DNA from: Escherichia coli
GTDB lineage: Bacteria > Pseudomonadota > Gammaproteobacteria > Enterobacterales > Enterobacteriaceae
Direction: 5' to 3' (one strand)
Length of the DNA: 64,000 bases
Assembly (NCBI RefSeq): GCF_016903815.1
Contig: NZ_CP069973.1
Shown here: positions 1-17,697 of the stretch, one piece after another
How the letters are laid out: the number at the start of each line of letters is the position of its first letter
How positions within the stretch are numbered: the first letter of the stretch is position 1
Made by a program: the position numbers and the translations under genes
The notes under the pieces: generated by a model
What the model was told of the DNA's origin: nothing
Seen by the model: only the letters and a program-made list of their open reading frames with translations
Database searches by the model: none

Positions 1-40
1 ATTATCAAAGCCACTCTGTAGGGAATGGCTTTTGTAATAA

Positions 41-379
41 CTACTGTTCGCTTAGCTTCTGCTTCAGCAAGTAACCTTCGAGCATCCAGATTTTGTTTAC
101 AGCATTTTGCCGGGCAATCTTCCGACCAATTTCTGCATCAAAGTTTTCCGGGCTTGCACAGGCGCTTTCACCGGTGACGGTGAAGCCATTTTGTAGAGTC
201 AATACACAAAATGTCAGCAGAGCCAAACTGTCGTGATAGTCATCGCCAGTTGCAATAGCTCCATCAGCAGCAGTGAAGTACGTTTCCGCAAGAATAATGC
301 TTTCGATATGGTCTGGCGTAACGCGCTGGGCGGTTTTGCCTTTCTCAACGATTTCTTTTTCGATTTGCTGGTCGTTCAT
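41..379 (-). CDS. Hypothetical prophage protein
   Basis: 112-aa ORF downstream of the lysis cassette; no motif recognised. Confidence 0.35.
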   Translation of the reverse strand: MNDQQIEKEIVEKGKTAQRVTPDHIESIILAETYFTAADGAIATGDDYHDSLALLTFCVLTLQNGFTVTGESACASPENFDAEIGRKIARQNAVNKIWMLEGYLLKQKLSEQ

Positions 380-758
380 AATTATGACCCTGTAGAGTGG
401 TTGCTTGATTAAGATGTCTTTCCATCAGTCCGCCACCACAAAGAATCTTTTTTGCCATAAGGCAGGAGGTTCATCTTTCAGTGGCTGCCAGTGTTATTTC
501 CCCCACTTACTGGCTTGGGTTGCTTCGTGGTACTGCCGTAACTGGTTGCCTAGAACAAATTCCGGTTTCATTATCAAGCCCACCCGTAGATAGGCTTTGT
601 AATGAACTGGCTCTTATCTCAACGCAGCCCCTTACCGCGCGCCAGATGCTCAATATCAAGCATCAGCAATGAGATGTTTAATCTGGATTCACTCCAGAAG
701 TGATCACCACCCTGTCTACAGAGCCAGATGTGAAGGATGATGAGTAAAATTATCGCTA

Positions 759-1226
759 TCATCGAAGGCATTGCGTCCTGATGTATTCCTGAAGCGTTCT
801 CAGTGCTGTTTGGTCGCGGATAATTCCGCCCCGGACACCGAGAACGTTTCGTCCAGCAACTGGAGAGAGTTCGACGGTGGCATCATTGCCCATGCCGGAG
901 GCGCTGGAGGTTTCGGCTGAGGATGGCATATGGCATTTTCCTTTGACGAACACCCGACCACCATTATCAAGCTTGCGCCGAAGAGCATCATTTTCAGCTT
1001 TCGCATCAGCTAACTCCTTCGTGTATTTAGCATCGAGTGCATCAGCAGAACGCTGGCGCTGCTGCATGTGAGTAATGGTGGCGGTCGCCTGCTTCAGCTC
1101 ACTGACTTTTTTATCTCGCTGCTCTTTGTAGGTCATGGCGTTATCACGGTAATGATTAACCGCCCATGACAGGCAGACGATGATGCAGATAACCAGAGCG
1201 GAGATAATCGCGGTGACTCTGCTCAT
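759..1226 (-). CDS. Rz: Rz i-spanin
   Basis: Translation [30 protein letters not shown]... closely matches recalled lambda Rz; stop overlaps the endolysin gene. Confidence 0.85.
800..1006 (-). CDS. Rz1: Rz1 o-spanin lipoprotein, embedded in Rz in another frame
   Basis: ORF nested in Rz with signal/lipobox-like VVGCSS and a proline-rich stretch PPAPPAW, as in lambda Rz1. Confidence 0.65.
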
Positions 1227-1699
1227 ACATCAATCTCTCTGACCGTTCCGCCTGCTTCTTTGAATTTTGCAATTAGGCTGTCAGCCTTATGCTCGAACTG
1301 ACCATAACCAGCGCCCGGCAGTGAAGCCCAGATATTGCTGCAACGGTCAATTGCCTGACGAATATCACCGCGGTCAATCATCGGTAAAGCGCCACGCTCC
1401 TTAATCTGCTGCAGTGCCACAGCGTCCTGGCTTTTCGGAGAGAAGTCTTTCAGGCCAAGCTGCTTGCGGTAGGCATCCCACCAACGGGAAAGAAGCTGGT
1501 AGCGCCCGGCGGCTGTTGATTTGAGTTTGGGGTTTAGCGTGACAAGTTTGCGAGGGTGATCGGAGTAATCAGTAAATAGCTCTCCGCCTACAATGACGTC
1601 ATAACCATGATTTCTGGTTTTCTGCCGTCCGTTATCAGTTCCCTCTGACCACGCCAGCATATCGAGGAACGCCTTACGTTGATTATTGATTTCCACCAT
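1223..1699 (-). CDS. R: Endolysin R (lytic transglycosylase)
   Basis: 158-aa translation [35 protein letters not shown]... matches recalled lambda R nearly throughout. Confidence 0.9.
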
Positions 1700-2006
1700 C
1701 TTCTACTCCGGCTTTTTTAGCAGCGAAGCGTTTGATAAGCGAACCAATCGAGTCAGTACCGATGTAGCCGATGAACACGCTCGTTATATAAGCGAGATTG
1801 CTACTTAGTCCGGCGAAGTCGAGAAGGTCACGAATGAACCAGGCGATAATGGCGCACATCGTTGCGTCGATTACTGTTTTTGTAAACGCACCGCCATTGT
1901 ATCTGCCGCGAAGGTACGCCATTGCAAACGCAAGGATTGCCCCGATGCCTTGTTCCTTTGCCGCGAGAATGGCGGCTAACAGGTCATGTTTTTCTGGCAT
2001 CTTCAT
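1683..2006 (-). CDS. S: Holin S with dual start (MKM)
   Basis: 107-aa translation [25 protein letters not shown]... matches recalled lambda S. Confidence 0.9.
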
Positions 2007-2515
2007 GTCTTACCCCCAATAAGGGGATTTGCTCTATTTAATTAGGAATAAGGTCGGTTACTGATAGAACAAATCCAGGCTACTGTGTTTAGTAATCAGA
2101 TTTGTTCGTGACCGATATGCACGGGCAAAACGGCAGGAGGTTGTTAGCGCGACCTCCTGCCACCCGCTTTCACGAAGGTCATGCGTAGAAGGCCGCAGCA
2201 TAACTATCACTGATGAATTCAGGATAGCCAGTGGCTACGGCTCAGTTTGGGTTGTGGCGGCCGGAATCGAACCGGCTTCCATCGGTGCGCTGCCGATTGC
2301 AGTACGCGCGGCGGTCAGCTACATGACTAGTATTTTCACTGTCGCCTATCTGCTAGCTCGCCATTGAGCTTCACCACAACGATAAGAGCACTGCGCGGCA
2401 CCTTTCACCAATTCCGCGAGGTCTGCGGGTTCAATGCTCTTACCTGTTGTGCAAACAAAAAAAGCCACCATTGCAACTTAAGAGTCACTAACGGCAGCTT
2501 ATCTTCTAATTATGG

Positions 2516-3034
2516 CTAAATGGATAATTGCATGTCAAGGCTTTTAACAGCAACATGCTTAACTTTCTCAACACGTTTACGCATTTTGAAAGCATTTTGC
2601 ATTGGCTGGTACAAAACAAATAACGACGCTTTCAGGATGTCGTCAATTTCGTTTCTACAGGTTGCCAGTGAAGGTTTTCTCCATCCCTCACCACCACGTC
2701 CACACATCTTGCGTGGCTTTGCAGTCGCGTGATAGTAGGATGCAATTGCTCGCTTAGATGAACCATGAGCGTAGTAGCTGAGGAGGATGCCAAATGCTTT
2801 CTTGTCAATGCACATGACGGAATCGACGACCTGAGAAATCAACATTCCATCATCATCATTACACATTGGCCTTGTCATAACTCTTCCCGGCTCTACGCTC
2901 TCCATGAACTTCGCTATTACGCTGCTCATGCGCTTTTCCAGACGACCTGAATAAACCCATGCGCCCCACAGTTCAAGCCAGCCATTCAGCCACTCGTGCT
3001 GCTCTTTGGTGAGGTTTAGTTCTCTTATGCTCAT
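2516..3034 (-). CDS. Late-gene antiterminator Q (QuuD-like family, not lambda Q)
   Basis: Position immediately upstream of the lysis cassette; WGAW and CxDDDG motifs resemble the recalled DLP12 QuuD-type Q. Confidence 0.6.
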   Translation of the reverse strand: MSIRELNLTKEQHEWLNGWLELWGAWVYSGRLEKRMSSVIAKFMESVEPGRVMTRPMCNDDDGMLISQVVDSVMCIDKKAFGILLSYYAHGSSKRAIASYYHATAKPRKMCGRGGEGWRKPSLATCRNEIDDILKASLFVLYQPMQNAFKMRKRVEKVKHVAVKSLDMQLSI

Positions 3035-3219
3035 CGTCTTCCCCTCTTGCCTTGTTTGACCATCAGGACGCCGTTAACTATTACGTGACGCTCGCCTTTG
3101 CTGTCTCGGTTGTACTTGAGCACTGTTCCTCTTGCGCAGGAAAGCATCCTTGCCACTTCGGTCTGATTTCCTCGTGTCTGGATAAGCAGTTCTGGTATCG
3201 TTTGAATTGTGGCGTTCAT
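3031..3219 (-). CDS. ninH: NinH-like small DNA-binding protein
   Basis: Motif GNQTEVARxLxCxRGTVxKY resembles recalled lambda NinH. Confidence 0.55.
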   Translation of the reverse strand: MNATIQTIPELLIQTRGNQTEVARMLSCARGTVLKYNRDSKGERHVIVNGVLMVKQGKRGRR

Positions 3220-3578
3220 GCGTTCTCCAGTTCGGTGATTTTTATTCCAAGCCGTCCGCCTGGTACTTTCACACCACGAATTACGCGAATGTCATCGAAT
3301 TGCTCGTCGTCTTCCGCAAATCCGGCGTGGATAAGGGAGTCGAGTAAACCTTTCAGGATGTTATCGAGGTCGCGGCGGCGGGAGTCTGGAACGTCTGCGA
3401 TGACTTTGATGCGGAGTCGTGATTTGGTGAAAATGTCTAACTTGAGTTGGCGGATGATTTGCTGAACGTCTTTTCGGTATTTCTGGCCTTTATCGCTGAT
3501 GTAGTATTGGCTTCCCCGTCTTCGCCAGTAGGTGTTCAGCGACGGTGGGTATGGAAGCACAAACTGATATTCGTTCAT
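3216..3578 (-). CDS. rusA: Holliday-junction resolvase RusA
   Basis: 120 aa with the RRRDLDN motif and overall resemblance to recalled RusA. Confidence 0.8.
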   Translation of the reverse strand: MNEYQFVLPYPPSLNTYWRRRGSQYYISDKGQKYRKDVQQIIRQLKLDIFTKSRLRIKVIADVPDSRRRDLDNILKGLLDSLIHAGFAEDDEQFDDIRVIRGVKVPGGRLGIKITELENA

Positions 3579-3865
3579 GGCTTAATCTTCCCCTCCTTCA
3601 GCAGTATCGCCTGCGTCCTGATTACGCCTTCGAGGTGGTAAAGTCTGGCGTCTTTGTTGTCGAGGTTATGGGTGCGTCGGTCGATTTCATCGTGACACGC
3701 GCTACAAGCCCATGCGCCGATCAGGTCGTCAGGCTTCATTCCCGTTCCGCAAATTCCAGCCATCCGGTAATGTGCCAGAACTGTAGTTTCAGGATTACCA
3801 TTGCATACGCCGTAAATACGTACCTGGCATTCTCTGCCGCGTGCTTCTTTGCGTAGATTAGCCAT
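3575..3865 (-). CDS. YbcO-like DUF1364 protein (Cys-rich, putative nuclease)
   Basis: 96 aa; GRECQVRIxGVCNGNPET...CSACHDEIDRRTH resembles recalled DLP12 YbcO. Confidence 0.55.
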   Translation of the reverse strand: MANLRKEARGRECQVRIYGVCNGNPETTVLAHYRMAGICGTGMKPDDLIGAWACSACHDEIDRRTHNLDNKDARLYHLEGVIRTQAILLKEGKIKP

Positions 3866-4587
3866 TAAGCAGCCTCCCCTGTTACTTTCAGCATTCCGTT
3901 ATCGAGCAGCTTTCTGGTCAGCCACTGTTGACCACGCCCGGTGATTTTTGTGGTGAACGATATCTGTATTCCGTGATTTGTGTTGACCGCTGTTTCTTTC
4001 ACTGCGAAATAGCCGCGATCCATATATTCCTGCATTGGCACATTGCGCCGGGAACCTGAAGCAATAAGGATTTTGTGATCGCGCATCCACGCAAACAGTT
4101 TGTTTGGACCAATACCAACAACCTTTGCATAGTTTCCAATCAAAATTCCACTGGCCTCGCCAACGCGATCGGCAAACTCAACTTTAGGTGCGGCAATTGC
4201 GAGCTGGTTTTCCAGTTGCATTTTCTGCTCAGCAAGGTCAGCAGCAAGGCGCAACGCTTCTGGTAGCGTTTTTGGGATATTAACCGCAGATTCTTCAAGC
4301 TCTCGCCAACGGTCAACAAGGCGAGCGGTGAATTCCGGCGACAACTGGGCAACAACGACAATACTGTCTCGCTTACCTTGTTCGCCTTCGAAGACGTAAT
4401 GCTCGTACTGAACATTGAACCCTAAGTTATTGATTCTTCCGGAAACCTCAATTTGAGGAAGCCGGATAACACCATTTTTAGCCAGCGTTTCGATGGTACG
4501 TTTCACATTGTCATGACGCTTACCAACCAACTCAGCAATTTCAATGCTTGTCATTTTGATGGCATTGCCATTCATTAACTCATTCAT
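3865..4587 (-). CDS. Phage regulatory protein, Rha/antirepressor-like
   Basis: N-terminal IEIAELVGKRHDNVKR motif typical of Rha-family regulators; C-terminal region resembles antirepressor domains. Confidence 0.55.
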   Translation of the reverse strand: MNELMNGNAIKMTSIEIAELVGKRHDNVKRTIETLAKNGVIRLPQIEVSGRINNLGFNVQYEHYVFEGEQGKRDSIVVVAQLSPEFTARLVDRWRELEESAVNIPKTLPEALRLAADLAEQKMQLENQLAIAAPKVEFADRVGEASGILIGNYAKVVGIGPNKLFAWMRDHKILIASGSRRNVPMQEYMDRGYFAVKETAVNTNHGIQISFTTKITGRGQQWLTRKLLDNGMLKVTGEAA

Positions 4588-4792
4588 CGTCTTCTTCCTC
4601 GTACATTGAGCTATTCGGATCGCTCATCAGTTCTGCGCAGCAGTGCTCACACACGTGAACTTCCAGCACATGCAGCTTCTGACCGCAGTTAGCGCACGTT
4701 AAAGCTCGCTCGACGCTTTCTTGTTCGTAACTTCGATTTGGGTCAATCACCTTGTATTCCTCGCACGATTTCTTAGCCACCGGATATCCCAC
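4580..4792 (-). CDS. ninF: NinF-like protein (start uncertain)
   Basis: [47 protein letters not shown] matches recalled lambda NinF; the true start may be an internal GTG. Confidence 0.6.
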
Positions 4793-4929
4793 AGGTGAGC
4801 AGTGTAATTGAAGGTTTTTACGTCAGATTCTTTTGGGATTGGCTTGCGTTTATTTCTGGAGCGTTTCGTTGGAAGGTATTTGCAGTTTTCGCAGATGATG
4901 TCAGTGAAACTTCGTCGCTGTCGCCTCAT
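4747..4929 (-). CDS. ninE: NinE-like protein
   Basis: Internal Met gives [51 protein letters not shown], matching recalled lambda NinE; 4-bp overlap with the upstream gene. Confidence 0.7.
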
Positions 4930-5453
4930 GCCGCCCTCCTGACGCCCTGCCCGATCGCCATCAATGCCGCTTTGGATACGGTAGTAAACATCCGTCGAGG
5001 ACTGATGAACGGTCGCCAAATCAGCAGCATGGAACCTTTGCTGTTTCCCTTCTTCTCCAGCCCTGTCGATGGTTCGATAAAATTAATCCGTCCATCAGTA
5101 ATGATGCGAACTTCGTCAATACTCTCCAGAGCCTTGCTGAACCATCCGACAGACATATCCTCTGGCACAAGCATAACTACCGTCTGTCGCTGTTGTATGC
5201 ACTGCTCAGCGGCTTTTTCCACCCACGGCCTGATATTGCTGTACGGCGGGTTATTCCAGATTGCACCGTGGCTTACCCACTCAGAATTGAGCGCGTCGTC
5301 GGCCTCAGTCAGCCAGTGAGCGCACAGAGCATTTTTGTCGCTCGCTGCCGAATCCAGCCAGAATCCAAACTCAATATCCAGTGCATCAAAAAGCCAAAGC
5401 GGCGTTTGCCAGCAGTCCTTGTCGTGTGCTGGCGTATTTGATTTGATAGTCAT
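4926..5453 (-). CDS. Phage DNA N6-adenine methyltransferase
   Basis: NPPY catalytic motif (WNNPPYSN); start taken at MTIKS, overlapping the ninB stop as ATGA. Confidence 0.8.
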
Positions 5454-5890
5454 GCAGCCCGATCTCCCCATCTCGCTTTCCACTCCAGAGCCAGTCTCGC
5501 TTCGTCTGACCACTTAACGCCACGCTCTGTACCGAATGCCTGTATAAGCTCTAATAGCTCCGCAAATTCGCCTACACGCATCCTGCTGGTTGACTGGCCT
5601 ATTACCACAAAGCCATTCCCGGCAAGGTTAGGAACAACATCCTGCTGCTTTAATGCTGCGGTAAACACACACTTCCAGCTTTCTGCATCCAGCCAGCGAC
5701 CATGCCATTCAACCTGACGAGAGACGTCACCTAAGCAGGCCCATAGCTTCCTGTTTTGGTCTAAGCTGCGGTTGCGTTCCTGAATGGTTACTACGATTGG
5801 TTTGGTTGGGTCTGGAAGGATTTGCTGTACTGCGTGAATAGCGTTTTGCTGATGTGCTGGAGATCGAATTTCAAAGGTTAGTTTTTTCAT
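5450..5890 (-). CDS. ninB: NinB recombination protein
   Basis: MKKLTFEIRSPAHQQNAIHAVQQILPDPTKPIVVTIQERNRSLDQNRKLWACLGDV... matches recalled lambda NinB; start set at MKK rather than the ORF-track start. Confidence 0.85.
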   Translation of the reverse strand: MKKLTFEIRSPAHQQNAIHAVQQILPDPTKPIVVTIQERNRSLDQNRKLWACLGDVSRQVEWHGRWLDAESWKCVFTAALKQQDVVPNLAGNGFVVIGQSTSRMRVGEFAELLELIQAFGTERGVKWSDEARLALEWKARWGDRAA

Positions 5891-5908
5891 GACTTCCCTC
5901 TCCCCCAA

Positions 5909-5938
5909 ATAAAAAGGCCTGCGATTACCAGCAGGCCT
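5909..5938 (-). terminator. tR2-like intrinsic terminator upstream of ninB
   Basis: Minus-strand transcript forms hairpin GGCCTGC-8nt-GCAGGCC followed by TTTTT; same context as lambda tR2. Confidence 0.6.
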
Positions 5939-5963
5939 GTTATTAGCTCAGTGATGTAGATGA

Positions 5964-6233
5964 TCATTGCTTCATCTCCCTTTCCATTTCATCAATGTCA
6001 ACGTCATCAGGAAGATGGGAGCAATACGCCGCTATACCATGATGATTTATCTCATACCCTTTGAACGTTACCATCTGGTGCGTAATCTCAACTTCGTTCA
6101 GGAATCCGTCATCGCATAACTGCCTGGCTATTTTCGATTTGGTCTGGATTATTGGTAGTGCCTGTTCTTTCAAAGCGCATGATATTTGTGCATCCCATGC
6201 CTTTTCGAGAATGGCTAATTGTTTTTTATTCAT
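5964..6233 (-). CDS. Hypothetical protein (ren position)
   Basis: 89-aa ORF between the helicase gene and tR2. Confidence 0.4.
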   Translation of the reverse strand: MNKKQLAILEKAWDAQISCALKEQALPIIQTKSKIARQLCDDGFLNEVEITHQMVTFKGYEINHHGIAAYCSHLPDDVDIDEMEREMKQ

Positions 6234-7684
6234 CAGAATCCTCCTTTCTTCTTGGACTGCGGTTCCTCGCGTTCACGGCGGCGCATTTCAGCAGACTGTT
6301 GGTCTGTGTCATAAATAGCGCCATTTGCCTGAATGCAATACACCGTGCCGGTATTGCCATGACGATTGAGGCGAAGGATTAGTTCGGTTTCACCAGGAGG
6401 AAAGCTGTCATCAAAAGCACCTTCACGATGGATCCCAACCCAATAATCGCAATCCTGTTCAATCTGCCCTGTATCTCGTGAGTCACTTGGTAATGGGCGT
6501 TTATTGGTTCGGCTTTCCAGTGCGCGGTTAAGCTGTGTCAGAAGCACAACAACGCAATCAAGCTCTTTGGCAAGGTTCTTCAGTCCTTTGGTGATCATGC
6601 CGTAAGCAAGGTCGTTGCGATCGGCCTTTTCAGCGGTCATTAGTGTCAGGTAATCGACCAGAATCATGCCAACACATCCTTTTTCTCGCTTGATTCGACG
6701 GCTTTCGCTGACGATTTGAGCCAGAGATAATCCCGGCGTGTCGTCGATGTAAAGCAGGTCGATTTCACTCAAGCGATTGGCTGTTTCGATCGCCCTGTTG
6801 AAGTCACCATCGTAATCACCCTGATAGCCGTCATCAGCGTCATTTGTCGCCGGAAGGTAAAAAATATTGGGGTTAACACCTGACTTTTGCCCTACCAGTT
6901 TTTCCAGTATCTGGTCACCTGGCATTTCAAGGCTGAACATCAGAGCGGGCTTTTTCTCATGCACTGCGCAGTTGATTGCCATCTGGCTGTATAGCGTCGT
7001 TTTCCCCATCTTAGGGCGAGCGCCAATGACAAACAAAGAGCCTTTCACCAGACCTTTCGGTGACAGCATCCTGTCCAGCGATGGGATCCCTGTGCTCATT
7101 CCTCGTTGTTCGCCTGACGGGTCAAAACGCTTCTCAAGGTCGCTAACCCAGTCTTCCATGACCTCACCAAATGAGCGAAGTCCGCGACGCGATCCGGTTT
7201 TTGCATGGTCTGTCAGTTGCGTGAAAATCGCCTGAATAGCTTCGTACTTCTGCGTTGCAGTCATTCCGTTGCGGGAATAGAGCAATTCCGTCGCTTCAGT
7301 CATGCGGTTGATGGCGTAGCGTTCCATTGCGGTTTCGCGAACCTGCATTGCATAGGCAACGATGTTTGCTGCGCTTGGCGTGTTCTTTGCGATCTCAGCG
7401 ATATAAGCAAAACCGCCAACAGACGCCGTTAACGATTTACGCTCCAGTTCATCGAAAAGCGTCAGGCCATCTACTGGCTTTTGCTCCCGGTGCATTCTGG
7501 TTATCTCTTCGAAAAGGATTTTGTGTGGTCGGCTGTAAAATGAATCAGGCTTCAGCATCGCCAGAACTTTCTGGACGCGCTCACTGCTGTCATCATCCAG
7601 AAGCAATCCACCAATCACCGCCTGCTCTGCCTCGATGCTATGGGGCGGCGCATAAAAATTATCGGTCATCGTGTTCACCCTCAC
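6233..7684 (-). CDS. Replicative DNA helicase, DnaB family (phage-encoded)
   Basis: 483 aa; DnaB-like N-terminus (HSIEAEQAVIGGLLLD) and Walker A GARPKMGKTTL. Confidence 0.85.
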   Translation of the reverse strand: MRVNTMTDNFYAPPHSIEAEQAVIGGLLLDDDSSERVQKVLAMLKPDSFYSRPHKILFEEITRMHREQKPVDGLTLFDELERKSLTASVGGFAYIAEIAKNTPSAANIVAYAMQVRETAMERYAINRMTEATELLYSRNGMTATQKYEAIQAIFTQLTDHAKTGSRRGLRSFGEVMEDWVSDLEKRFDPSGEQRGMSTGIPSLDRMLSPKGLVKGSLFVIGARPKMGKTTLYSQMAINCAVHEKKPALMFSLEMPGDQILEKLVGQKSGVNPNIFYLPATNDADDGYQGDYDGDFNRAIETANRLSEIDLLYIDDTPGLSLAQIVSESRRIKREKGCVGMILVDYLTLMTAEKADRNDLAYGMITKGLKNLAKELDCVVVLLTQLNRALESRTNKRPLPSDSRDTGQIEQDCDYWVGIHREGAFDDSFPPGETELILRLNRHGNTGTVYCIQANGAIYDTDQQSAEMRRREREEPQSKKKGGF

Positions 7685-8558
7685 GAACTTTCAGGTAGGT
7701 ATTGTCGTTAAGCAGGAAATCAAATCCCTTTTTGTGCCAGACGGTTCCGCGTTGATGGTTTGGGCGTTCTTCGAACATCCATCGGCAATTTTCGCCTACG
7801 TAGCTCAAATAATTTCTCCAGTCCTGCATCGTGAACCCATGTCCGTCAAGCTGGCGGGTTATCACTCCGGCTTTGCGCCAGAACGTTCGGATCTGGTTTT
7901 TACGCTTGTCATTCAGTGCGCGGATTCTTGGCGCTTCAGGAAGGATTTCGTGGTAAGCATCGACAACATCCTGACAGCTGACGGAAGGTTTTTTCTTGTC
8001 AGACTTTTTGTCTGCTGTGGCACTCTCTAATACGTCAGTATTAGAGATAATATTATTATATTCTTTATCTGTGGTAATTTGCTGGTAATCTGCTGGTACA
8101 GTATTGCTTGCAGGCATTGGTATTGCTGGCTTTGAGGTGGTAATTTGCTGGTAATCTGCTGGTACAAAACTTGACTGATAATCGTCATATTTCTCTACCG
8201 AGAAAACTGAGAATTTACCGTGTGAAACCCAGTCAATCATGCCGAGTTTTTTGAACTTTCTAAGCAGGTACTGAACGCGATCTGGTTTGAGTCCTGTTTC
8301 AAACGCCAGAGAGTTTCTACCGCCAAGTAGCTTCCCTCTGCCTACCAGAATTTCTCCTGCGTCAGTCATTACATACTCAGGCGTATGCTTTGCTTTGAGG
8401 ATTAAGTGAACCCACAGATGCGCTGCTTCTGCGTCCTTGTAAAACGGCACATCCATAATTTTACGGTGCAGCAAGGCATACCCCTTACCGCTGCTTTGAT
8501 GCGGTTGTTGTAGCCTTCTGGCCTCTCTGGCTTCGGCTAGATTAGATATGTTACTCAT
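7659..8558 (-). CDS. Replication initiator, lambda O-like, with internal origin repeats
   Basis: Position between cII and the helicase; contains direct DNA repeats encoding a duplicated [10 protein letters not shown] peptide. Confidence 0.65.
8071..8166. repeat. Origin-like iterons inside the O-like gene: two identical 30-bp direct repeats (8071-8100, 8137-8166) beside an AT-rich stretch (8041-8070)
   Basis: GTGGTAATTTGCTGGTAATCTGCTGGTACA appears twice; the lambda origin likewise lies inside O. Confidence 0.5.
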
Positions 8559-8697
8559 GACCTTTCTCCTTCTGCATCAGCTTCACTTTTTCCAACTCAG
8601 CCCGAAATCGACCAGGCTGCTTGAAGCTGGACAGGAAGCGATCACGTAGTATGTGTTTGTGAATTTTGTCCTGGTAAGGACTGAGTTGTTTTGTCAT
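8551..8697 (-). CDS. Small basic ORF (48 aa) between cII and the O-like gene, not on the ORF track
   Basis: My own translation [21 protein letters not shown]...; its stop overlaps the O-like start codon. Confidence 0.25.
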
Positions 8698-8729
8698 AAT
8701 TACTCCTGTGGATTGATCCAGTAATGACC

Positions 8730-9023
8730 TCAGAACTCCATCTGGATTTGTTCAGAACGCTCGGTTGCCGCCGGGCGTTTTTTATTGGTGAGAATCGAAG
8801 CAACTTGTCGTGCCAATCGAGCCATATCGTCGTCAACGACGCCCCATTCAAGAACAGCAAGCAGCATTGAGAACTTTGGAATCCAGTCCCTCTTCCACCT
8901 GCTGATCTGCGACTTATCAACTCCTACAGCTTCCGCTGTCTTCTCAGTTCCAAGCATTGCGATTTTGTTAAGCAACGCACTCTCGATTCGTAGAGCCTCG
9001 TTGCGTTTGTTTGCACGAACCAT
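8730..9023 (-). CDS. cII: Transcriptional activator CII
   Basis: From the internal Met, [51 protein letters not shown]... matches recalled lambda CII. Confidence 0.85.
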
Positions 9024-9102
9024 ATGTAAGTATTTCCTTAGATAACAATTGATTGAATGTATGCAAATAAATGCATACACCATAGGTGTGGTTTAATTTG
9101 AT

Positions 9103-9135
9103 GCCCTTTTTCAGGGCTGGGATGTGTAAGAGCGG
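9103..9135 (-). promoter_or_regulatory. nutR (boxA CGCTCTTACAC and boxB GCCCTGAAAAAGGGC on the minus strand)
   Basis: Minus-strand sequence matches lambda nutR boxA/boxB between cro and cII. Confidence 0.7.
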
Positions 9136-9142
9136 AAATGTC

Positions 9143-10495
<1,353 letters not shown>

Positions 10496-10543
10496 TCCCC
10501 ACCTCAATCTCGATAACCAAAAACAAACTATTTTTCATTTAAA

Positions 10544-10612
10544 AACAATGGAGTTTGTTTTTCACGCCCCTTTTTACAATATTTCTTGTTTACAACATAC
10601 AATCTTTCTTGT
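10544..10612. promoter_or_regulatory. Left operator OL (three ACAA-N6-TTGT sites) with the pL region
   Basis: Sites at 10544-10557, 10576-10589 and 10599-10612 upstream of nutL and N. Confidence 0.6.
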
Positions 10613-10656
10613 AATTTTAAGCCATCAGCAGGACGCACTAACCACCATGAAGGTGA

Positions 10657-10687
10657 TGCTCTTAAAAATTAAGCCCTGAAGAAGGGC
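10657..10687 (+). promoter_or_regulatory. nutL (boxA GCTCTTAAAAA, boxB GCCCTGAAGAAGGGC)
   Basis: Sequence GATGCTCTTAAAAATTAAGCCCTGAAGAAGGGCAGC matches recalled lambda nutL. Confidence 0.8.
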
Positions 10688-10885
10688 AGCTTTCAAAGCA
10701 GAAGGCTTTGGGATTGGATGAATGAGCAGGCTGATGCTCGACCAATGTATAAACAGCGCTCATGGCAAGCAGTAACCAATCTGCGCCTCAAGACAGCGTC
10801 ACTGGTAGTGCGGGCGCTCTAACCAGTAAGCCGGGGTTCAGCGCCGGCCATCCAATCACCAAAGCTAACTGACAGGAGAATCCAG

Positions 10886-11218
10886 ATGGATGCACAAACA
10901 CGCCGCCGCGAACGTCGCGCAGAGAAACAGGCTCAATGGAAAGCAGCGAATCCCCTGTTGGTTGGGGTAAGCGCAAAACCAGTTAACCGCCCTATTCTCT
11001 CGCTGAATCGCAAACCGAAATCACGAGTAGAAAGCGCACTGAATCCGATAGACCTTACGGTGCTGGCTGAATACCACGAACAGATTGAAAGCAACCTGCA
11101 GCGTATTGAGCGCAAGAATCAGCGCACATGGTACAGCAAGCCACGCAGTGAAATGGGTGTGACTTGCTCAGGCCGCCAGAAGCAACGCGGAAAATCAATT
11201 CCAGCTTATTACGATTGA
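10886..11218 (+). CDS. N: Antitermination protein N
   Basis: MDAQTRRRERRAEKQAQWKAANPLLVGVSAKPVNRPILSLNRKPKSRVESALNPIDLTVLAEYH... matches recalled lambda N. Confidence 0.9.
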   Translation: MDAQTRRRERRAEKQAQWKAANPLLVGVSAKPVNRPILSLNRKPKSRVESALNPIDLTVLAEYHEQIESNLQRIERKNQRTWYSKPRSEMGVTCSGRQKQRGKSIPAYYD

Positions 11219-11226
11219 GGTGATAT

Positions 11227-11478
11227 ATGGAATTTCATGAAAGTGCGATTTGTGATTTTCGCGCTAACGCAAATTCAGTAAAACCACAGCCAATTGCAGT
11301 TCTTTTTAAAACAATGGGAGCGTGGGCTGTTTTATGCTTCGCCGCTGATGACACTGACGCAAGAATGGCAATAGGCCAAGAGATGGAGATGGATCCGACA
11401 AACGATGAATTCATAATTTATGGCGCTCCATCTAATTACTTACTTGATACCTGCAACATTTACAACAAGGCTGCCTGA
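11227..11478 (+). CDS. Hypothetical early-left protein
   Basis: 83-aa ORF directly after N with an SD-ATG context. Confidence 0.4.
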   Translation: MEFHESAICDFRANANSVKPQPIAVLFKTMGAWAVLCFAADDTDARMAIGQEMEMDPTNDEFIIYGAPSNYLLDTCNIYNKAA

Positions 11479-11537
11479 TGGTGGTCTTTATTTTTTAGCC
11501 GTAAATAATTTCATGCTTATTACAATCAAGGTGATAT

Positions 11538-11903
11538 ATGGAAGAACAAGCAAACAAGATTCTCGTAGAACTACTGCAAAAAGCCAGCAATGGAATAGAC
11601 GCGGCTGTTTCATTTAGCCAGGCACAGATTCCTGATGTCATCCATCAGCTTTTGATGTGGCACGCCGTATCATCAGCTGGAATTCAGGCTATCTGTGTAT
11701 TGGTGATTATAGCGTGTGTTTATCTGATGATTTTTGCATGGAATAAAGGAGATGATGCAGATATTGTTCTTTCATCACTACTTGTCACATCAGGAATAGC
11801 GATTATTTCTATTGTTGTTTTCTTCAATTATTTCGACTGGCTGAAAATTTGGCTTGCTCCAAAACTTTACCTTATCGAATATGCAGCATCATTGGTTAAG
11901 TAA
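11538..11903 (+). CDS. Small membrane protein (two predicted TM segments) in the sieB/ral slot
   Basis: 121 aa with two hydrophobic stretches (AICVLVIIACVYLMIFAW and VTSGIAIISIVVFFNYF). Confidence 0.5.
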   Translation: MEEQANKILVELLQKASNGIDAAVSFSQAQIPDVIHQLLMWHAVSSAGIQAICVLVIIACVYLMIFAWNKGDDADIVLSSLLVTSGIAIISIVVFFNYFDWLKIWLAPKLYLIEYAASLVK

Positions 11904-12092
11904 TTTCAGGACGCATAGCCGGCCTTTATTTTTGGCACAAACAACAGAATAAACACTGCACTGTGTATTCATTCCAACGAGTGGATACACGGAGCAATGT
12001 CGCTCGTAACTAAACAGGAGCCGACTTGTTCTGATTATTGGAAATCTTCTTTGCCCTCCAATGTGAGGGCAGTTTTTTTGACGGAGTAAACG

Positions 12093-12341
12093 ATGATAAA
12101 AACTGATTACCCTGCAGAGCTTAAACAAAAAGTAATAACAGCAATTAAATGCTCTTTTATCTCATGTCGTACAGATGAAGAACGATATGTCGTTGAGTGT
12201 GCAATTGTCGAGTTTCTCACAGCGATGGAATTTACCGCTGCAGAATCAATAGATGTATTAAAGCAATCAGACGGAAATGATATTGAAACGGATGATGTTA
12301 TTGACCGACTAATAAAATCATTCGAAGAAGAAATAGAGTAG
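12093..12341 (+). CDS. Hypothetical acidic protein
   Basis: 82-aa ORF; no motif recognised. Confidence 0.4.
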   Translation: MIKTDYPAELKQKVITAIKCSFISCRTDEERYVVECAIVEFLTAMEFTAAESIDVLKQSDGNDIETDDVIDRLIKSFEEEIE

Positions 12342-12424
12342 CCGCCTGAGCGCGGCTTTACCGCATACCAATAATGCTTCACGAGAGGCATTTTAGTTAT
12401 GCAATCAAATATAAGGAGTTACCC

Positions 12425-12559
12425 ATGATGCACTTTCAGCTCGCGGGTAGCGGCGTCATGTCCGCTTTCTACCCGCACGAATCTGAATTATCACGCCGAG
12501 TTAAACAATTAATCAGAGCAGCAAAGAAACAAATGGAGGCGTTATGCGCAATGAAATAG
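12425..12559 (+). CDS. CIII-like protein (putative FtsH inhibitor)
   Basis: From the internal Met, MMHFQLAGSGVMSAFYPHESELSRRVKQLIRAAKK follows the pattern of recalled lambda CIII (AGWPVAGCPSESLLERITRKLR). Confidence 0.5.
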   Translation: MMHFQLAGSGVMSAFYPHESELSRRVKQLIRAAKKQMEALCAMK

Positions 12560-12777
12560 CCATCAATCACCAGATGCTTCGTGCTGCACAGAACAAAGCA
12601 GTAATAGCCAGATTTATTGGTGATTCCAAAATGTGGCTTGAAGCAAATAAAGCGATGAAATCAGCTATCAACCTTCCGTGGTATCGCAGGAAATGAGTTT
12701 TACAGATAACTGGTCAGACGAAGAATTCATTCGTCAGATGAACAAAATGCTCAATCAGCACAAAGAACAGGAGAAAG

Positions 12778-13089
12778 ATGATGATTCTGACTCTGAATGA
12801 TAAGCGTGAAATATCGCAAATAATCGCAAGTTTTACTGATGAAGATTACGAACGAATCAACAGTGAAGTTGATCGCCTCTGCAAACGTTGCGACCCAATA
12901 AGCGAAATGCTTCGCTCATATAAACCAGATGAACACACTAAGGACGCTATCGACTGGCTGGAAGATGATGACTGTAACTATCAGGAAAAAGCCGCTGAAT
13001 GGTTCTGGGATGCAATAACCGAAAGAGTTAAGGCTGAATATGCCTTCGCAATATTCAAACGCAGACATATTTATGGAGAAGCTGCATGA
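12778..13089 (+). CDS. Hypothetical protein
   Basis: 103-aa ORF; stop overlaps the recT-like start. Confidence 0.4.
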   Translation: MMILTLNDKREISQIIASFTDEDYERINSEVDRLCKRCDPISEMLRSYKPDEHTKDAIDWLEDDDCNYQEKAAEWFWDAITERVKAEYAFAIFKRRHIYGEAA

Positions 13090-13997
13090 GCAATATCGTT
13101 GAATTCGTTAAACAGCAAGAGCAGTTATTCTGCGGAGCATTGACTGAACAGACGGTGACATGGGCTAAGGAAAGCCAGTTTGCAATTCAGTATTTCCAGA
13201 AAAATGATTACCTGGCTAAAACGGCACTGGCAAATCCAACCAGCGCACAGAACGCCATCATCAATGTTGCGGCGATCGGCATCACCTTAAACCCGGCCAG
13301 CAAACTGGCTTATCTGGTTCCTCGCGACGGCATGGTGTGCCTTGATATCAGTTATATGGGATTGCTCCATATTGCAATGGAGTCTGGTGTTATCTCATGG
13401 GGTCAGGCAAAACTTGTTCATGCTAACGATACCTATGAGTCAAACGGGCTTGATAAAGCACCAACCCATAAATACAACGCCTTCGGTGATCGTGGTGATA
13501 TCGTTGGCGTTTACTGCACAGTTAAGACGCCAGCAGGTGATTATCTAACGGAAGAGATGAGTCTGGCTGAAATTGAGGCTGTAAGGAAAACAAGCAAGGC
13601 GGCATTCAGCGATAAAGGACCATGGGTAAATCACTGGAATGAGATGGCGCGAAAGACGGTCGTAAAGCGTGCAAGCAAGTTTTGGCCTAAGGCATCACGT
13701 CTTGATAGTGCTATTCACGTACTAAACGAAGAAGAAGGTGTGTGGACTGAACCAGTTATGCCGCACAAATCAGAGGAAGATATCCGCGAAGATGAACGGA
13801 AACGCCAGCAGGAAATAACGGATAAAGCACAACTTCTTTGTGATGAAATGGCTCAGGCTGAAAACATGGATGATTTGAAGCGATATTTTGCAGAAGCATA
13901 TCGCCTGACATCTGGAATGAAATTGCAGCAGAACGTACAAGCCATTTACGCAGAATGCAAAGCGAAACTGGAGGTTGCCAGTGAGCAAACTATATGA
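13086..13997 (+). CDS. RecT-family single-strand annealing recombinase
   Basis: GPWVNHWNEMARKTVVKRASKFWP resembles the recalled RecT motif GPWVTHWEEMAKKTAIRR. Confidence 0.7.
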   Translation: MSNIVEFVKQQEQLFCGALTEQTVTWAKESQFAIQYFQKNDYLAKTALANPTSAQNAIINVAAIGITLNPASKLAYLVPRDGMVCLDISYMGLLHIAMESGVISWGQAKLVHANDTYESNGLDKAPTHKYNAFGDRGDIVGVYCTVKTPAGDYLTEEMSLAEIEAVRKTSKAAFSDKGPWVNHWNEMARKTVVKRASKFWPKASRLDSAIHVLNEEEGVWTEPVMPHKSEEDIREDERKRQQEITDKAQLLCDEMAQAENMDDLKRYFAEAYRLTSGMKLQQNVQAIYAECKAKLEVASEQTI

Positions 13998-14463
13998 AAT
14001 TGCCAATGAATACGCAAAATTGATGGATTCAGATTTAGAACCAGAGATGATTGCTGACACAATAGAAGGCATGGAAGGAGAATTTACCGATAAAATAGAG
14101 CAACTTCTTGCCATTATTAAAAATGAATCTGGTTATGCTGAACGCCTCAAGGAAGAGGCAAAGTCACTGAATGAGCGAGCCGCAGTAATTCAAAATAAGA
14201 TTGAGAGCATCAAATCATATATAGCGTCATCGCTTGAAATGGTTGGCAAGAAAAAGATTCGAGCAGGTATTCACCAGGTAACAATCCGCAAACCGTCAGA
14301 AACTGTAGAAATCATCGACTCAAGCGCCCTTCCTCCTGAATACGTTGAGTTTGAAACGACAATTAAAGCCGACAAACTGGCAATCAAACACCAACTAAAA
14401 GCAGGAATAAATATCCCCGGCGCTCAACTCAAAGTTGGGAAACCTTCACTTCTTATCAAATAA
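13975..14463 (+). CDS. Hypothetical protein coupled to the recombinase
   Basis: 162-aa helical ORF overlapping the recT-like stop. Confidence 0.4.
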   Translation: MPVSKLYEIANEYAKLMDSDLEPEMIADTIEGMEGEFTDKIEQLLAIIKNESGYAERLKEEAKSLNERAAVIQNKIESIKSYIASSLEMVGKKKIRAGIHQVTIRKPSETVEIIDSSALPPEYVEFETTIKADKLAIKHQLKAGINIPGAQLKVGKPSLLIK

Positions 14464-14474
14464 CGGTATCGACT

Positions 14475-14789
14475 ATGAAAAAGACTCCATGGGAGAAATG
14501 GGAAGTCGATTTCTTGCGCGAGGTAGCGGCGACAATGCCAGTTGAAGTTATCGCTGAAAAACTGGAAAGGACTGAAAAAGCAGTAATGGCGAAAGCAACA
14601 AGGATTGGCGCTGACATTGTTAGCCGACTTCGTGGAAGACGATGGACAAGAGCCGAAGTATCACTTTTCGGTAAGTTCTCCGCAGAAGAAATAGCAATTG
14701 CAACCTGCCGCTCAATTTATTCAGTAAGAGCTATGCGATACAAGCTAAAAAAACTCGATGAAGAAAGAGCAGGCATACGAATAAATTAA
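14475..14789 (+). CDS. Hypothetical protein
   Basis: 104-aa ORF. Confidence 0.4.
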   Translation: MKKTPWEKWEVDFLREVAATMPVEVIAEKLERTEKAVMAKATRIGADIVSRLRGRRWTRAEVSLFGKFSAEEIAIATCRSIYSVRAMRYKLKKLDEERAGIRIN

Positions 14790-14805
14790 CATGGAGTAAT
14801 TAACA

Positions 14806-15087
14806 ATGAAGCTAAACATCGACCTTGGAAAATACGTTATTACCGGAACCAAACACGACCTGATTCTTAGTGAAAGAGGAATTATCAAAGAAGGCGAGAA
14901 TGCAGGGAAAGAAACACTAAGTCGTATCGGTTATTACAGCAAGTTTGAGCATCTGGTTAAAGAGTTATGCAACCGTGAAATCCTGTTATCTCAGGCGCAG
15001 ACACTACAGGATATTCAGCAGCATATCGAGACTTTAGGTGTATCACTTAGCACGGCTGTTGACCAGTTCGCGGAGAGTAAATCATGA
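14806..15087 (+). CDS. Hypothetical protein
   Basis: 93-aa ORF. Confidence 0.4.
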
Positions 15088-15488
15088 GAGGACTTGCATA
15101 CAATCCCGGCATTCTTCCGGCAGAAATGATTATTCGCCAACGCGTAAAGCCAATGCCATCGAGAGAGGAATTGCTTAAGAGAAATTCTTTTCCATCAGTG
15201 AATCAAAACAAATATCTGAATTCGATGTGGCGCAAAGGAGGCAAGCAGTGAGTAATTCCGCACGACTACAGCTTGGTTTTTCACCGCTATCAAAAACTAT
15301 CATGCTGGCAAAAATGCGCGATGTTGAAGGTGGACGTATGCGCGTTGGCAATGATCCAGGTCGTGATGTTACCAATGAGGCTGCTCAATTGGTGTGGCGA
15401 CTGGTCATGGCTGAAGGTGGTGAGATCGCGTGGGAACTTGATGATGGTTCTCGCATGGTGTTGAAGGCAGAGAAGCAGGAGACAACCA

Positions 15489-16181
15489 GTGAGCAAGATT
15501 GACTATCAGGCACTGCGTGATGTGGCAGTGAAAGCCGGTAAAGATAAGTGGCAAGCTAAAAAAATAAACGGTGATTTTTTCGTTATTCGTCACGGTAGTT
15601 ATACAAGACAGCATGGCTACACATTGTATCAACCCATTGCGGAGATTGATTGTAAGTCAGTCCGGGATTTTGTTGCCAAGGCTAATCCGGCTACCGTGCT
15701 TGCGCTTCTTGATGAACTGGAAGCTCAAAGCAAACGCATTGCAGAGCTGGAGAAAAAAGCTGCACCAGATTCGTTTGGCATCATCGGTGAAAATATTCGA
15801 ACACAGGATAATCGAATAACGTCAGACCCTATGTTTTGTGTGTATCAAAAGCGCGAAATCGTTGTTGATGCTGATTATGACTATGACCGGATTGTCTGGG
15901 TTGATGAAGATGGTAATGAAGCCAATAAACGCCAAAGTCGTCGTCTCGAACTACTTCACGAAAACTTTCGAGAGCCACAAGAAAAATGGCGGCGCGTTGC
16001 TGTGAAAGATATTGATGAATTCGTTACCTGCTGTTTCACCGAACAGGGTTGTAAAGACTACCTGGCAGCCAATGGTCACAATCTTCGCTTGCCATTTATA
16101 TATGTAAAAAGCGGTTTCAGGAACGCTGAATATATCGGCATAAGAAACTGGCTTGCTGGCATTCGCATCAAAGGAGAGTGA
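15489..16181 (+). CDS. Ead/Ea22-like protein
   Basis: 230 aa; composition and position resemble the lambdoid ea22 family; assigned from memory. Confidence 0.45.
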   Translation: MSKIDYQALRDVAVKAGKDKWQAKKINGDFFVIRHGSYTRQHGYTLYQPIAEIDCKSVRDFVAKANPATVLALLDELEAQSKRIAELEKKAAPDSFGIIGENIRTQDNRITSDPMFCVYQKREIVVDADYDYDRIVWVDEDGNEANKRQSRRLELLHENFREPQEKWRRVAVKDIDEFVTCCFTEQGCKDYLAANGHNLRLPFIYVKSGFRNAEYIGIRNWLAGIRIKGE

Positions 16182-16392
16182 TATGGCTATCGCTGCAAGT
16201 TACACCATGCATCTCTATTGTGATTGCCTCCAGTGTACAGATGGCAAATATAAGTCGCCAGACTTCGGTGAGTATATAGGTACGTCATGGGCTGGCTGTG
16301 CAAAAGAGGCGCGCAAGGATGGCTGGCGAATAAGCAAAGACAAAACGCGTGCTTTTGCGCCCGGGCATAAAGTTTTGAGGATTAACAAATGA
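16153..16392 (+). CDS. Hypothetical Cys-rich protein
   Basis: 79-aa ORF overlapping both neighbours. Confidence 0.35.
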   Translation: MLAFASKESDMAIAASYTMHLYCDCLQCTDGKYKSPDFGEYIGTSWAGCAKEARKDGWRISKDKTRAFAPGHKVLRINK

Positions 16393-17180
16393 CCACTTTA
16401 ACCGACAAAGAACTGATTAAAGAAATCAAAGAGCGCATAGGCAGCTTGGACGTTCGAGACAATATTGAGCGCCGTGCTTATGAAATTGCACTGGCATCGC
16501 TGGAAGCAGAGCCGATAGGTTTCCGTTGCAGGCGCAATGATAACCTTGGTGACTGGAGTTACGTATATCATCGAGAGCCAGATGATTTTGAGCGCAAACA
16601 TTTAGTGATAGAGGGCATTTACGCCTCCCCTCCAGCGCCAGTAGTACCGGAAGAAAAACCAATGCCTAATCCTCTTAGCATGTACGCGGTTGATGCTGTT
16701 GCCGCTATTGCAGAGGTGAGAGGCTGGAACGCCTGCCGCGCTGCCATGCTTCATAGTGCCGAACCTGCAAGTAATCATGAAGAGTTGCCGCTTGATTATC
16801 TCCAAGGTCAAAAAGATGGTCTTGAATGGGCTGCGCAGCTTGCAGAAGCAAATCACCCACAAACTGGCGACTGGCTTTACGATGACCCGCTGGAGCTGGC
16901 TAAAGCTATCAGAAAAGGTCCTGACATGCCCGAATTCGATGGACCAACTCCGGTGACTCCGGATAGTTGGATAAGCTGTAGTGATCGAATGCCGGAAGAC
17001 ACCAAAATGTTACTGGCATTTAGTCAAGGTCAAATAGTGGCAGCATATTGGAACTGGGTAGTGAGTCCAATTGATTACAAAAAATACAGAGCTTTCACAT
17101 ATTTATCAGGCAATATCTTGGATGACGTAACCCACTGGATGCCACTACCGGAACCGCCGCAGGAGGCTGACAATGGCTAA
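16389..17180 (+). CDS. DUF551-like phage protein
   Basis: C-terminal ...THWMPLPEPP is characteristic of DUF551 proteins. Confidence 0.5.
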   Translation: MTTLTDKELIKEIKERIGSLDVRDNIERRAYEIALASLEAEPIGFRCRRNDNLGDWSYVYHREPDDFERKHLVIEGIYASPPAPVVPEEKPMPNPLSMYAVDAVAAIAEVRGWNACRAAMLHSAEPASNHEELPLDYLQGQKDGLEWAAQLAEANHPQTGDWLYDDPLELAKAIRKGPDMPEFDGPTPVTPDSWISCSDRMPEDTKMLLAFSQGQIVAAYWNWVVSPIDYKKYRAFTYLSGNILDDVTHWMPLPEPPQEADNG

Positions 17181-17457: not shown

Positions 17458-17529
17458 CATCCTCGCACTCGCGGGGATTTCTTTTATCTGAACTCGCTAC
17501 GGCGGGTTTTGTTTTATGGAGATGATAAA

Positions 17530-17697
17530 TGCACTTCCGAGTCACTGGTGAATGGAATGGAGAGCCATTCGACAGGGTTATAGAAGCAGAGGACATCAAC
17601 GACTGCTATAACCACTGGATGATATGGGCGCAGATAGCGCATGCAGACGTAACCAATATTCGAATTGAAGAACTGAAAGAACACCAAGACGCCTGAT
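17530..17697 (+). CDS. Small prophage ORF (55 aa), not on the ORF track
   Basis: My own translation MHFRVTGEWNGEPFDRVIEAEDINDCYNHWMIWAQIAHADVTNIRIEELKEHQDA. Confidence 0.35.

Follow-up and report, generated by a model that had tools for sequence, protein, structure and literature searches.

A probable replication origin of 11-bp direct repeats within the initiator gene of a lambdoid prophage in Escherichia coli

Repeats within the initiator gene

We analysed a 64,000-nt stretch of Escherichia coli DNA (contig NZ_CP069973.1 of RefSeq assembly GCF_016903815.1), referred to below as the window, in which an O-like phage replication gene carries a pair of direct repeats that an earlier note had proposed to be an origin of replication. 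The gene, at 7659..8558 on the minus strand, encodes an initiator of 299 residues and contains the candidate origin; it was assigned to the 'O' gene of the HK022/HK620/VT2-Sakai type from the list of open reading frames (ORFs), from DNA identity and from the protein family PHROG 345. Repeat finding and a DNA search of the window located the 30-mer TGTACCAGCAGATTACCAGCAAATTACCAC on the minus strand twice and no more, at 8071-8100 and 8137-8166, each copy with 0 mismatches; it had no match in any of 100 dinucleotide-preserving shuffles of the window (0/100), even when 3 mismatches were allowed. Both copies lie inside the ORF and encode the same 10-residue peptide, at residues 132-141 and 154-163. 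The earlier note had described two identical 30-bp repeats at these positions, within coding sequence, beside an AT-rich tract and giving rise to a duplicated peptide, and it was accurate in each of these particulars, all coordinates included.

The 30-mer is composed of smaller repeats. Each copy amounts to about 2.7 copies of an 11-bp direct repeat with the consensus TTACCAGCAnA; the two triplets of units are 66 bp (6 x 11) apart, and the six units share one 11-bp grid. The 30-bp iterons of the earlier note are thus real, and are annotated as origin sequences in related phages (see below), but the functional unit is the 11-bp direct repeat, present six times, and not the 30-mer. When the gene is laid out in an 11-nt register starting at gene nucleotide 393, slots 1-3 and 7-9 hold TGTACCAGCAG / ATTACCAGCAA / ATTACCAC(..), slots 4-6 form the spacer, slots 10-11 the AT-rich tract and slots 11-13 a palindrome. 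Iteron cluster 1 (8137..8166, minus strand), which encodes residues 132-141 and is identical to 'ori iteron 1' of phage VT2-Sakai, consists of TGTACCAGCAG at 8156-8166, ATTACCAGCAA at 8145-8155 and a truncated ATTACCAC at 8137-8144. Cluster 2 (8071..8100, minus strand) repeats the same units 66 bp downstream, encodes residues 154-163 and is identical to 'ori iteron 2' of VT2-Sakai. Since 11 cannot be divided by 3, the identical DNA unit is translated in all three frames, encoding VPAD, then YQQI, then TT; a peptide repeat cannot explain this periodicity.

The 36-bp spacer between the clusters (8101..8136, minus strand; three 11-nt slots) shows no conservation across lineages. We considered whether it might consist of degenerate units, as slot 4 (AAAGCCAGCAA) is unit-like in the window, but rejected this because the resemblance is not conserved in the homologous genes L078-L083 or in other types. 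Across the whole window, 39 9-mers differ by no more than 1 mismatch from the unit sequence TTACCAGCA, compared with 14.5 +/- 4.2 expected from shuffles. As these matches are scattered outside the origin and do not cluster, we treat them as composition and discount the enrichment as a signal; it probably reflects a codon or composition effect.

Along the direction of transcription (minus strand), the two triplets of 11-bp units are followed by a 23-bp A-rich AT tract and then by a palindrome with 10-bp arms and a 4-nt loop. The tract, AGATAAAGAATATAATAATATTA (8048..8070, minus strand), is A or T at 21 of 23 positions (91%) by its composition profile and strand composition, and is the presumed DNA-unwinding element. 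The GC content of the 40-nt interval 8040-8079 is 0.175, against about 0.45-0.55 in the gene around it, and the most A+T-rich 30-nt interval of the initiator gene is 90% A+T. The palindrome, TCTCTAATAC-TGAC-GTATTAGAGA (8024..8047, not assigned to either strand), is perfect and encodes ISNTDVLES, residues 171-179.

Selection on the repeats at the DNA level

We compared the window with L078-L083, which have the same unit type and share 77-78% DNA identity with it in the region encoding the N-terminal domain (N-domain). The iterons are 93-100% identical in these comparisons, whereas the spacer is only 56-67% identical. Where two genes encode the same amino acid, 17-19 of 18-19 codons are identical in the iterons; in the N-domain, the count is 61-67 of 106-109. 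For L078, with 78% DNA identity in the N-domain, the corresponding values are 19/19 and 65/109 (P = 1.5e-4, Fisher's test). Among near-identical genes, the spacer has the highest density of single-nucleotide polymorphisms (6/36). Thus synonymous sites within the repeats are frozen, and selection acts on the DNA rather than on the peptide. This freezing counts against any reading of the repeats as a protein-level feature, as does the lack of conservation of the spacer peptide between the two copies.

Repeat units follow the N-terminal domain

Three viral-contig scans, phage records and the window together yielded 251 genes with 184 distinct DNA sequences, whose N-domains were clustered at 85% identity and whose C-terminal domains (C-domains) were clustered at 80%. 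The best short mid-gene period is 11 in 180 of the 184 distinct homologous genes; the 3+3 layout of 11-bp units is kept in these 180 genes, whereas the repeat peptide differs completely across lineages.

The sequence of the unit varies among N-domain clusters. Cluster N1 has the repeat core TACCAGCA in 64 of 65 genes, cluster N2 the core TGCCAACA / GTGCCAAC in 43 of 47, and cluster N3 the core TGTCCAGC in 21 of 21, while TGTCCAAC is the core in all genes with N-domains of the L type and the Sf6 type. For the remaining four N2 genes, the top 8-mer is CCAACAGA, an offset of the N2 unit, in three and an AT-tract word in one. C-domain types C1, C2 and C3 are each found with at least three different cores. 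The unit sequence therefore follows the N-domain type, one-to-one, and not the C-domain type.

The 3+3 layout also occurs with other units: TTGTCCAACGG in L, ST160, Sf6 and ENT47670, TTGTCCAGCCG in Klebsiella phage Chronis and L084, and TGTGCCAACAG/AATGCCAACAA in ST101-KPC2phi6.1 and Erwinia phage 59. Pseudomonas phage Orisa01 has runs of ACCAGCAGTGA, and more-distant homologues with 24-65% identity to Orisa01 (L173-L191, L202, L204 and L219) keep the 11-bp period in 4-7 mostly contiguous units, for example CGAACAACAAA and GACCAGCAG; at the thresholds used, the palindrome was not found in these distant homologues. Surveyed homologues that carry the palindrome have a tract of 79-96% A+T after the repeats.

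Mosaic genes separate the two domains. In L082 and L083 the N-domain and units are those of the window but the C-domain is another, and L084 combines a Chronis-type N-domain with the window's C-domain. On this pattern, the type-C N-domain of Chronis and L084 should bind TGTCCAGCC units and that of the window TTACCAGCA units. The widest exchange is seen in Erwinia phage 59 (vB_EhrS_59, L009 1186-2837), in which a type-D N-domain with units GTGCCAACAGA is fused to a C-domain of lambda-O type (phrog_277, E = 1.7e-55 over residues 171-315), and the next gene encodes a lambda-P-like loader and not a helicase. The C-domain is thus exchanged as a module along with the downstream partner gene. A ParB-like gene lies directly upstream of the initiator in this phage.

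The repeats also vary in number. A 66-bp module, consisting of the 30-mer and the spacer, occurs in nature in 1, 2, 3 or 4 copies, giving proteins of 277 (L076/L077 and L130), 299, 321 (L072/L073 and P0002-P0027) and 343 residues (P0001), so that each step shifts the length of the initiator linker by 22 residues. This variation is compatible with inter-repeat recombination and with a linker that tolerates changes in length.

Domain organization of the initiator

The initiator matches phrog_345 ('replication initiation O-like') with E = 3.5e-87 over residues 2-299. As this profile, PHROG 345, is matched by residues 16-169 of lambda O as well (E = 5e-17), a remote relationship between the N-domains of the two proteins is plausible on profile evidence. 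The lambda-O models Phage_rep_O (Pfam) and TIGR01610 (phage_O_Nterm) are not matched by the initiator; lambda O itself scores 132.6 bits on TIGR01610.

An AlphaFold2 run on a 115-sequence alignment of representatives returned two confident domains, at residues 31-120 (predicted local distance difference test score, pLDDT, >=90) and 191-299 (pLDDT >93). Between them, residues 131-180 have pLDDT <=52, and this stretch coincides with the peptide encoded by the iterons, AT tract and palindrome. The low-confidence stretch suggests that the origin encodes a disordered linker between the two domains, a location in which constraints at the DNA level can override the peptide sequence.

The N-domain (residues ~25-125; 8184..8486, minus strand) is the presumed iteron-binding domain, on the evidence of the AlphaFold2 model, Foldseek, profile matches and the correspondence of domain clusters with repeat cores. 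Its model has helices and a beta-hairpin in winged-helix order, and its best Foldseek matches in the PDB are DNA binders of the winged helix-turn-helix class (CadC/SmtB, the CodY C-domain, CAP, MarR and TubR; E~5e-3). Profile matches with E of 0.005-0.06 include CodY, MecI, GntR and the DnaD N-domain (2v79, E = 0.055). A winged-helix-like fold is thus moderately supported by modelling. PHROG families labelled as DnaD-like helicase loaders give matches with E from 5e-21 to 1e-8 (over residues 20-194, E from 5e-21 to 1e-10), and by tblastn the initiator has remote similarity (26% identity) to DnaD-domain proteins of Staphylococcus phages. The C-domain (residues ~190-299; 7662..7991, minus strand) is presumed to recruit the helicase, given the AlphaFold2 model, the domain swap in Erwinia phage 59 and similarity to phage P22 gp18, with the C-terminal half of which it shares 25% identity (E = 1e-4).

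A conserved palindrome after the AT tract

As DNA, either strand of the palindrome in the window gives a hairpin of -7.5 kcal/mol (z about -5). Of the 184 distinct genes, 163 (about 89%) carry in the corresponding place a perfect palindrome of 8 bp or more whose 4-nt loop is TAAC, TGAC or TAAA; among shuffled genes, just 4% contain a palindrome of this kind at any position. Homologous sites, which include L006, L007, L008, L009, L078 and L134, have the loop T-R-A-M, and 20 arm/loop variants were observed (for example TCTCTTCTAC/GTAGAAGAGA, ACTCATTAGG/CCTAATGAGT, ACTTACTACC/GGTAGTAAGT and AACTACATC/GATGTAGTT). Compensatory swaps between the arms alter the encoded amino acids.

Covariation was assessed in 30 distinct 32-nt segments. 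Pairing was found in 95.7% of cells, as against 30-49% in slid controls; this percentage is inflated because the segments were selected for containing a palindrome, a choice that leaves the diversity of the arms and their constant position unaffected. Changes on both sides occur in 10 of 10 pairs, and the covariation score is 0.817, compared with 0.188 in shuffles. The inner nine pairs include no G-U/G-T pair in any of the 30 sequences. Palindrome arms mix with both N- and C-domain types, and as they track neither we set aside the idea of a specific protein site that co-evolves with the initiator. Lambda has a counterpart, GTCAGAGAATTC-TGGC-GAATCCTCTGAC, directly after its A-rich tract, and in P22 a G/C palindrome follows the A-rich tract. 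The palindrome is a conserved, covarying hairpin or cruciform element; in the public records examined, it is not annotated as part of an origin.

These properties could alternatively belong to RNA, the palindrome acting as a weak intrinsic terminator of antisense (leftward) transcription or as a hairpin in the O mRNA. A terminator scan flags 8024-8047 on the plus strand (10 pairs, of which 3 are GC pairs, with the tail TAATATTATT), the record of phage L cII-101 labels the homologous site, on its antisense strand, with an automatically assigned 'terminator', and the A-rich sense strand of the AT tract makes the antisense strand T-rich, a hairpin/T-rich geometry that lambda shares. The score is only weakly terminator-like, however: the stem is AT-rich and weak (the -7.5 kcal/mol is as DNA), the tail is broken up by A's, and a promoter scan of 7600-8800 found no promoter-like site on either strand. 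A scan of 7000-9600 against Rfam with E up to 1 gave no match, and hence no known RNA over the palindrome, and the inner nine pairs lack G-U/G-T, which would be uncommon in an RNA helix and is in keeping with a constraint on both strands of the DNA. We therefore regard an RNA-level element as unlikely.

More readily, though still tentatively, we suggest that the palindrome may be an obligatory and so far unannotated fourth element of this class of phage origin, acting as a DNA hairpin or cruciform; it might, for example, stabilize the melted AT tract or supply a junction between single-stranded and duplex DNA for the phage helicase or primase. If this is true, the palindrome, together with a rule of one 11-bp unit per turn that holds across very different N-domain specificities, would amount to a general and testable origin grammar.

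The repeats as a probable replication origin

The initiator gene has 99% DNA identity to the O genes of mEp235, HK620, HK630, VT2-Sakai, Stx1 and Stx2 phages and CP-1639, and its protein is 98-100% identical to O of HK022, HK620, mEp235 and VT2-Sakai (98.7% to that of HK022). Within these genes, the VT2-Sakai record (AP000422) annotates 'ori iteron 1' and 'ori iteron 2', with O protein as the bound moiety, at gene nucleotides 393-422 and 459-488, and the HK620 record (AF335538) has a two-piece rep_origin over gene nucleotides 393-488. The 30-mers of the window are identical to the annotated ori iterons in both sequence and position in the gene. At the homologous place, the Sf6 record notes a 'repeat region reminiscent of the phage lambda origin' (a 'putative' origin), and that of L cII-101 a 'putative origin'.

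Given these annotated identical iterons and the comparative evidence above, we consider it very likely that the repeats form the origin from which a lambdoid (P22-like/HK022-type) prophage undergoes theta replication, an origin placed inside the prophage's own initiator gene; the claim of the earlier note that a phage origin lies inside the O-like gene is supported to this extent, with activity predicted by analogy. Binding by the initiator, unwinding, recruitment of the helicase and any part played by the palindrome are inferred on the model of lambda O/ori (PMC7466680) and SPP1 gp38/oriL (PMC6316719). The winged-helix N-domain would bind the 11-bp units in head-to-tail fashion, at roughly one for each helical turn, to form an O-some-like complex. 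In supercoiled DNA undergoing transcription from pR, the distortion so produced would then melt the adjacent AT tract. The C-domain would bring in a DnaB-like helicase of the phage itself, the product of the gene immediately downstream; there is no gene for a loader of the lambda-P type. The palindrome may extrude as hairpins that stabilize the opened region or mark its edge.

Several observations weigh against this interpretation. All database origin annotations of this type were made by analogy with lambda, and a search of the accessible literature found no direct experiment (origin cloning, footprint or unwinding assay) on an origin of the HK022/HK620/VT2-Sakai type; on the HK022, HK620 and VT2-Sakai origins it yielded statements at the level of annotation. 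Between 7600 and 8700 there is no DnaA box (<=1 mismatch) and no match to the consensus for integration host factor. The initiator has no Pfam or NCBIfam family above cut-off, its one Pfam match (DUF7376) falling below it, and the structural matches of the N-domain are generic as well as weak (E~5e-3). By BLASTP, its similarity to lambda O is not significant (E = 4.7), so that the description of the gene as O-like holds for position, architecture and remote profile similarity but not at the level of pairwise alignment. Finally, each unit is a short direct repeat that contains no inverted repeat and has none of the dyad symmetry of lambda iterons, for which reason the binding mode is not simply transferable from lambda. 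The parallel with the lambda origin drawn in the earlier note accordingly stands for the location within a gene and for the order of iterons, AT tract and palindrome, but does not extend to the symmetry of the units.

Two other explanations bear on the repeats themselves. They might be regulatory binding sites, active in autoregulation, as a transcriptional roadblock or in handcuffing, with the true origin elsewhere in the prophage. Plasmid iteron arrays also serve copy control, and binding within its own coding region could modulate expression of the initiator. Even so we find this improbable, since an AT-rich tract invariably comes after the repeats, in the order seen in the proven lambda origin; since the N-domain and repeats are exchanged as one unit with C-domains of both lambda type and P22 type; and since, by genetics cited in a study of phage L, the origin of that phage lies within its replication region, genes 18-12 (PMC8022706). 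It is harder still to credit that the repeats are a protein-level feature, whether a duplicated linker peptide or a neutral slippage duplication with no function in the DNA: the duplication preserves the reading frame, the linker that contains it is predicted to be disordered and accommodates one to four copies, and recombination between the 30-bp repeats would readily yield copy variants, yet the 11-bp period underlying the duplication is read in three frames and its synonymous sites are frozen.

Prophage context

A gene for a DnaB-like replicative helicase ('P' of HK022/HK620 and an analogue of P22 gene 12; Pfam DnaB 3.5e-31, DnaB_C 4e-60) lies at 6233..7669 on the minus strand and overlaps the end of the initiator gene; in HK620 and VT2-Sakai, likewise, the start of the P or DnaB-like helicase gene overlaps the end of O by 11 nt. 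Upstream of the initiator are homologues of DUF2740 orf48 and of CII, and the order of DUF2740 orf48 immediately upstream and DnaB-like helicase immediately downstream recurs in HK620, VT2-Sakai, L, Chronis and others. Further upstream, at 9143-10094, is a divergent pair formed by a repressor (HTH_3/Peptidase_S24) and a Cro-like gene (HTH_3), whose sequences resemble the cI and cro immunity type of phage 434. The Sf6 record describes 434-identical operators in the region homologous to this pair. Positions 1-18043 of the window align with the early regions of P22-like and lambdoid phages, best with vB_EcoP-683R2 (99.1%) and then with Sf6, HK633 and HK022. From its neighbouring genes and this alignment, the locus is the replication module of the pR operon of a lambdoid prophage, in reverse orientation in the window.

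Two further features were observed in this region. Downstream of the helicase, in the nin region, a gene for a Dam-type N6-adenine methyltransferase (4926-5908; Pfam Dam 2.1e-64) overlaps the end of the NinB gene (2.2e-54). A strong terminator-like hairpin at 8754-8781 on the plus strand, with 12 pairs (6 GC) and a T-run, is antisense to the end of the cII-like gene; its position is equivalent to that of the oop terminator annotated in P22, and the region has no Rfam match.

Significance

The repeats are already known as a putative origin, from database annotation and from work on phage L, in which six imprecise 11-bp repeats, TGTCCAACGGA, in gene 18 were described as the likely origin (Zaworski et al. 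2021, PMC8022706). What we add refines the picture and is no discovery: the assignment of an 11-bp register to the HK022 type, the covariation of units with the N-domain, the test at synonymous sites, the copy-number variants of the 66-bp module, the placement of the origin in a linker, and the covarying palindrome. The last is the sole refinement that may merit follow-up by specialists.

The origin is an ordinary, widespread and already annotated feature that was correctly recognized. Its 160-bp segment is present in 371 of 5426 complete E. coli genomes, and a large group of prophages, lambdoid and P22-like, would replicate from an origin of this type. The Stx2 phage of O157:H7 Sakai has the same origin, as do other Stx phages, and replication of Stx phages has been linked to toxin production (PMC7466680). 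Knowing the binding unit and the domain that sets specificity helps to predict whether co-resident prophages are compatible in replication, and helps in the design of origin-specific tools or inhibitors.

Comparison with known systems

Classical iteron-plasmid origins (RepA, pi, TrfA) have direct repeats of 17-22 bp, a Rep protein of WH1-WH2 type and, usually, DnaA boxes beside an AT-rich region. The window differs in its 11-bp units, in the lack of a DnaA box between 7600 and 8700 and in the single winged-helix-like N-domain that was modelled.

SPP1 gp38/oriL, with direct repeats, as well as an AT-rich unwinding element, inside the initiator gene and a phage-encoded helicase of the DnaB family (PMC6316719), is analogous in architecture. 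The similarity of SPP1 gp38 and DnaD-like initiators to the window protein is remote and restricted to the N-domain, and SPP1 differs in needing a separate loader, gp39, and in the architecture of its repeats.

In P22, a homologous C-domain is likewise followed by a DnaB-like helicase gene (gene 12), and the origin is annotated inside the initiator gene (gene 18), with repeats followed by an A-rich tract. The N-terminal half of P22 gp18, which we judge from its sequence to be of lambda-O type, gives no BLASTP alignment to the window protein, and the P22 repeats contain TCGGTAAAA at a spacing of about 20-24 bp, as against the 11-bp units of the window.

The lambda origin resembles that of the window in lying mid-gene, between two domains, in a 299-residue initiator gene of the pR operon; in having repeats, an A-rich tract and a palindrome with a 4-nt loop, in that order; and in its modular initiator, whose N-domain is directed at DNA and whose C-domain is directed at the partner, the two initiators being remotely linked through PHROG 345. 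It differs in having four dyad-symmetric iterons of 18-19 bp (ATCCCTCAAAACGAGGGA-type) spaced at 20-24 bp, where the window has asymmetric 11-bp units in two triplets, and in its partner, which is the P loader of host DnaB in lambda and a phage DnaB-like helicase in the window.

Gene 18 (gene 43) of phages L, ST64T and Sf6 encodes a homologous initiator, 65-66% identical overall and near-identical in the C-domain. These phages share with the window the 3+3 layout on an 11-bp grid, the AT tract and the palindrome arms TCTCTAATAC, and differ from it in the type of N-domain and in the unit, which is TGTCCAACGG as against TTACCAGCA; the origin specificities of the L type and of the window are therefore predicted to differ. 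By genetics cited in the phage L study, replication functions of L and P22 are exchangeable only as a whole region and not as single genes (PMC8022706).

Closest of all are HK022, HK620, mEp235, VT2-Sakai (Sp5) and related Stx phages, which have 99% identity in the gene, identical 30-mers at identical positions and the same neighbours. We found no material difference between the origin in the window and records of the HK022/HK620/VT2-Sakai type; these records give two 30-bp iterons, to which the present analysis adds the 11-bp substructure, the AT tract and the palindrome.

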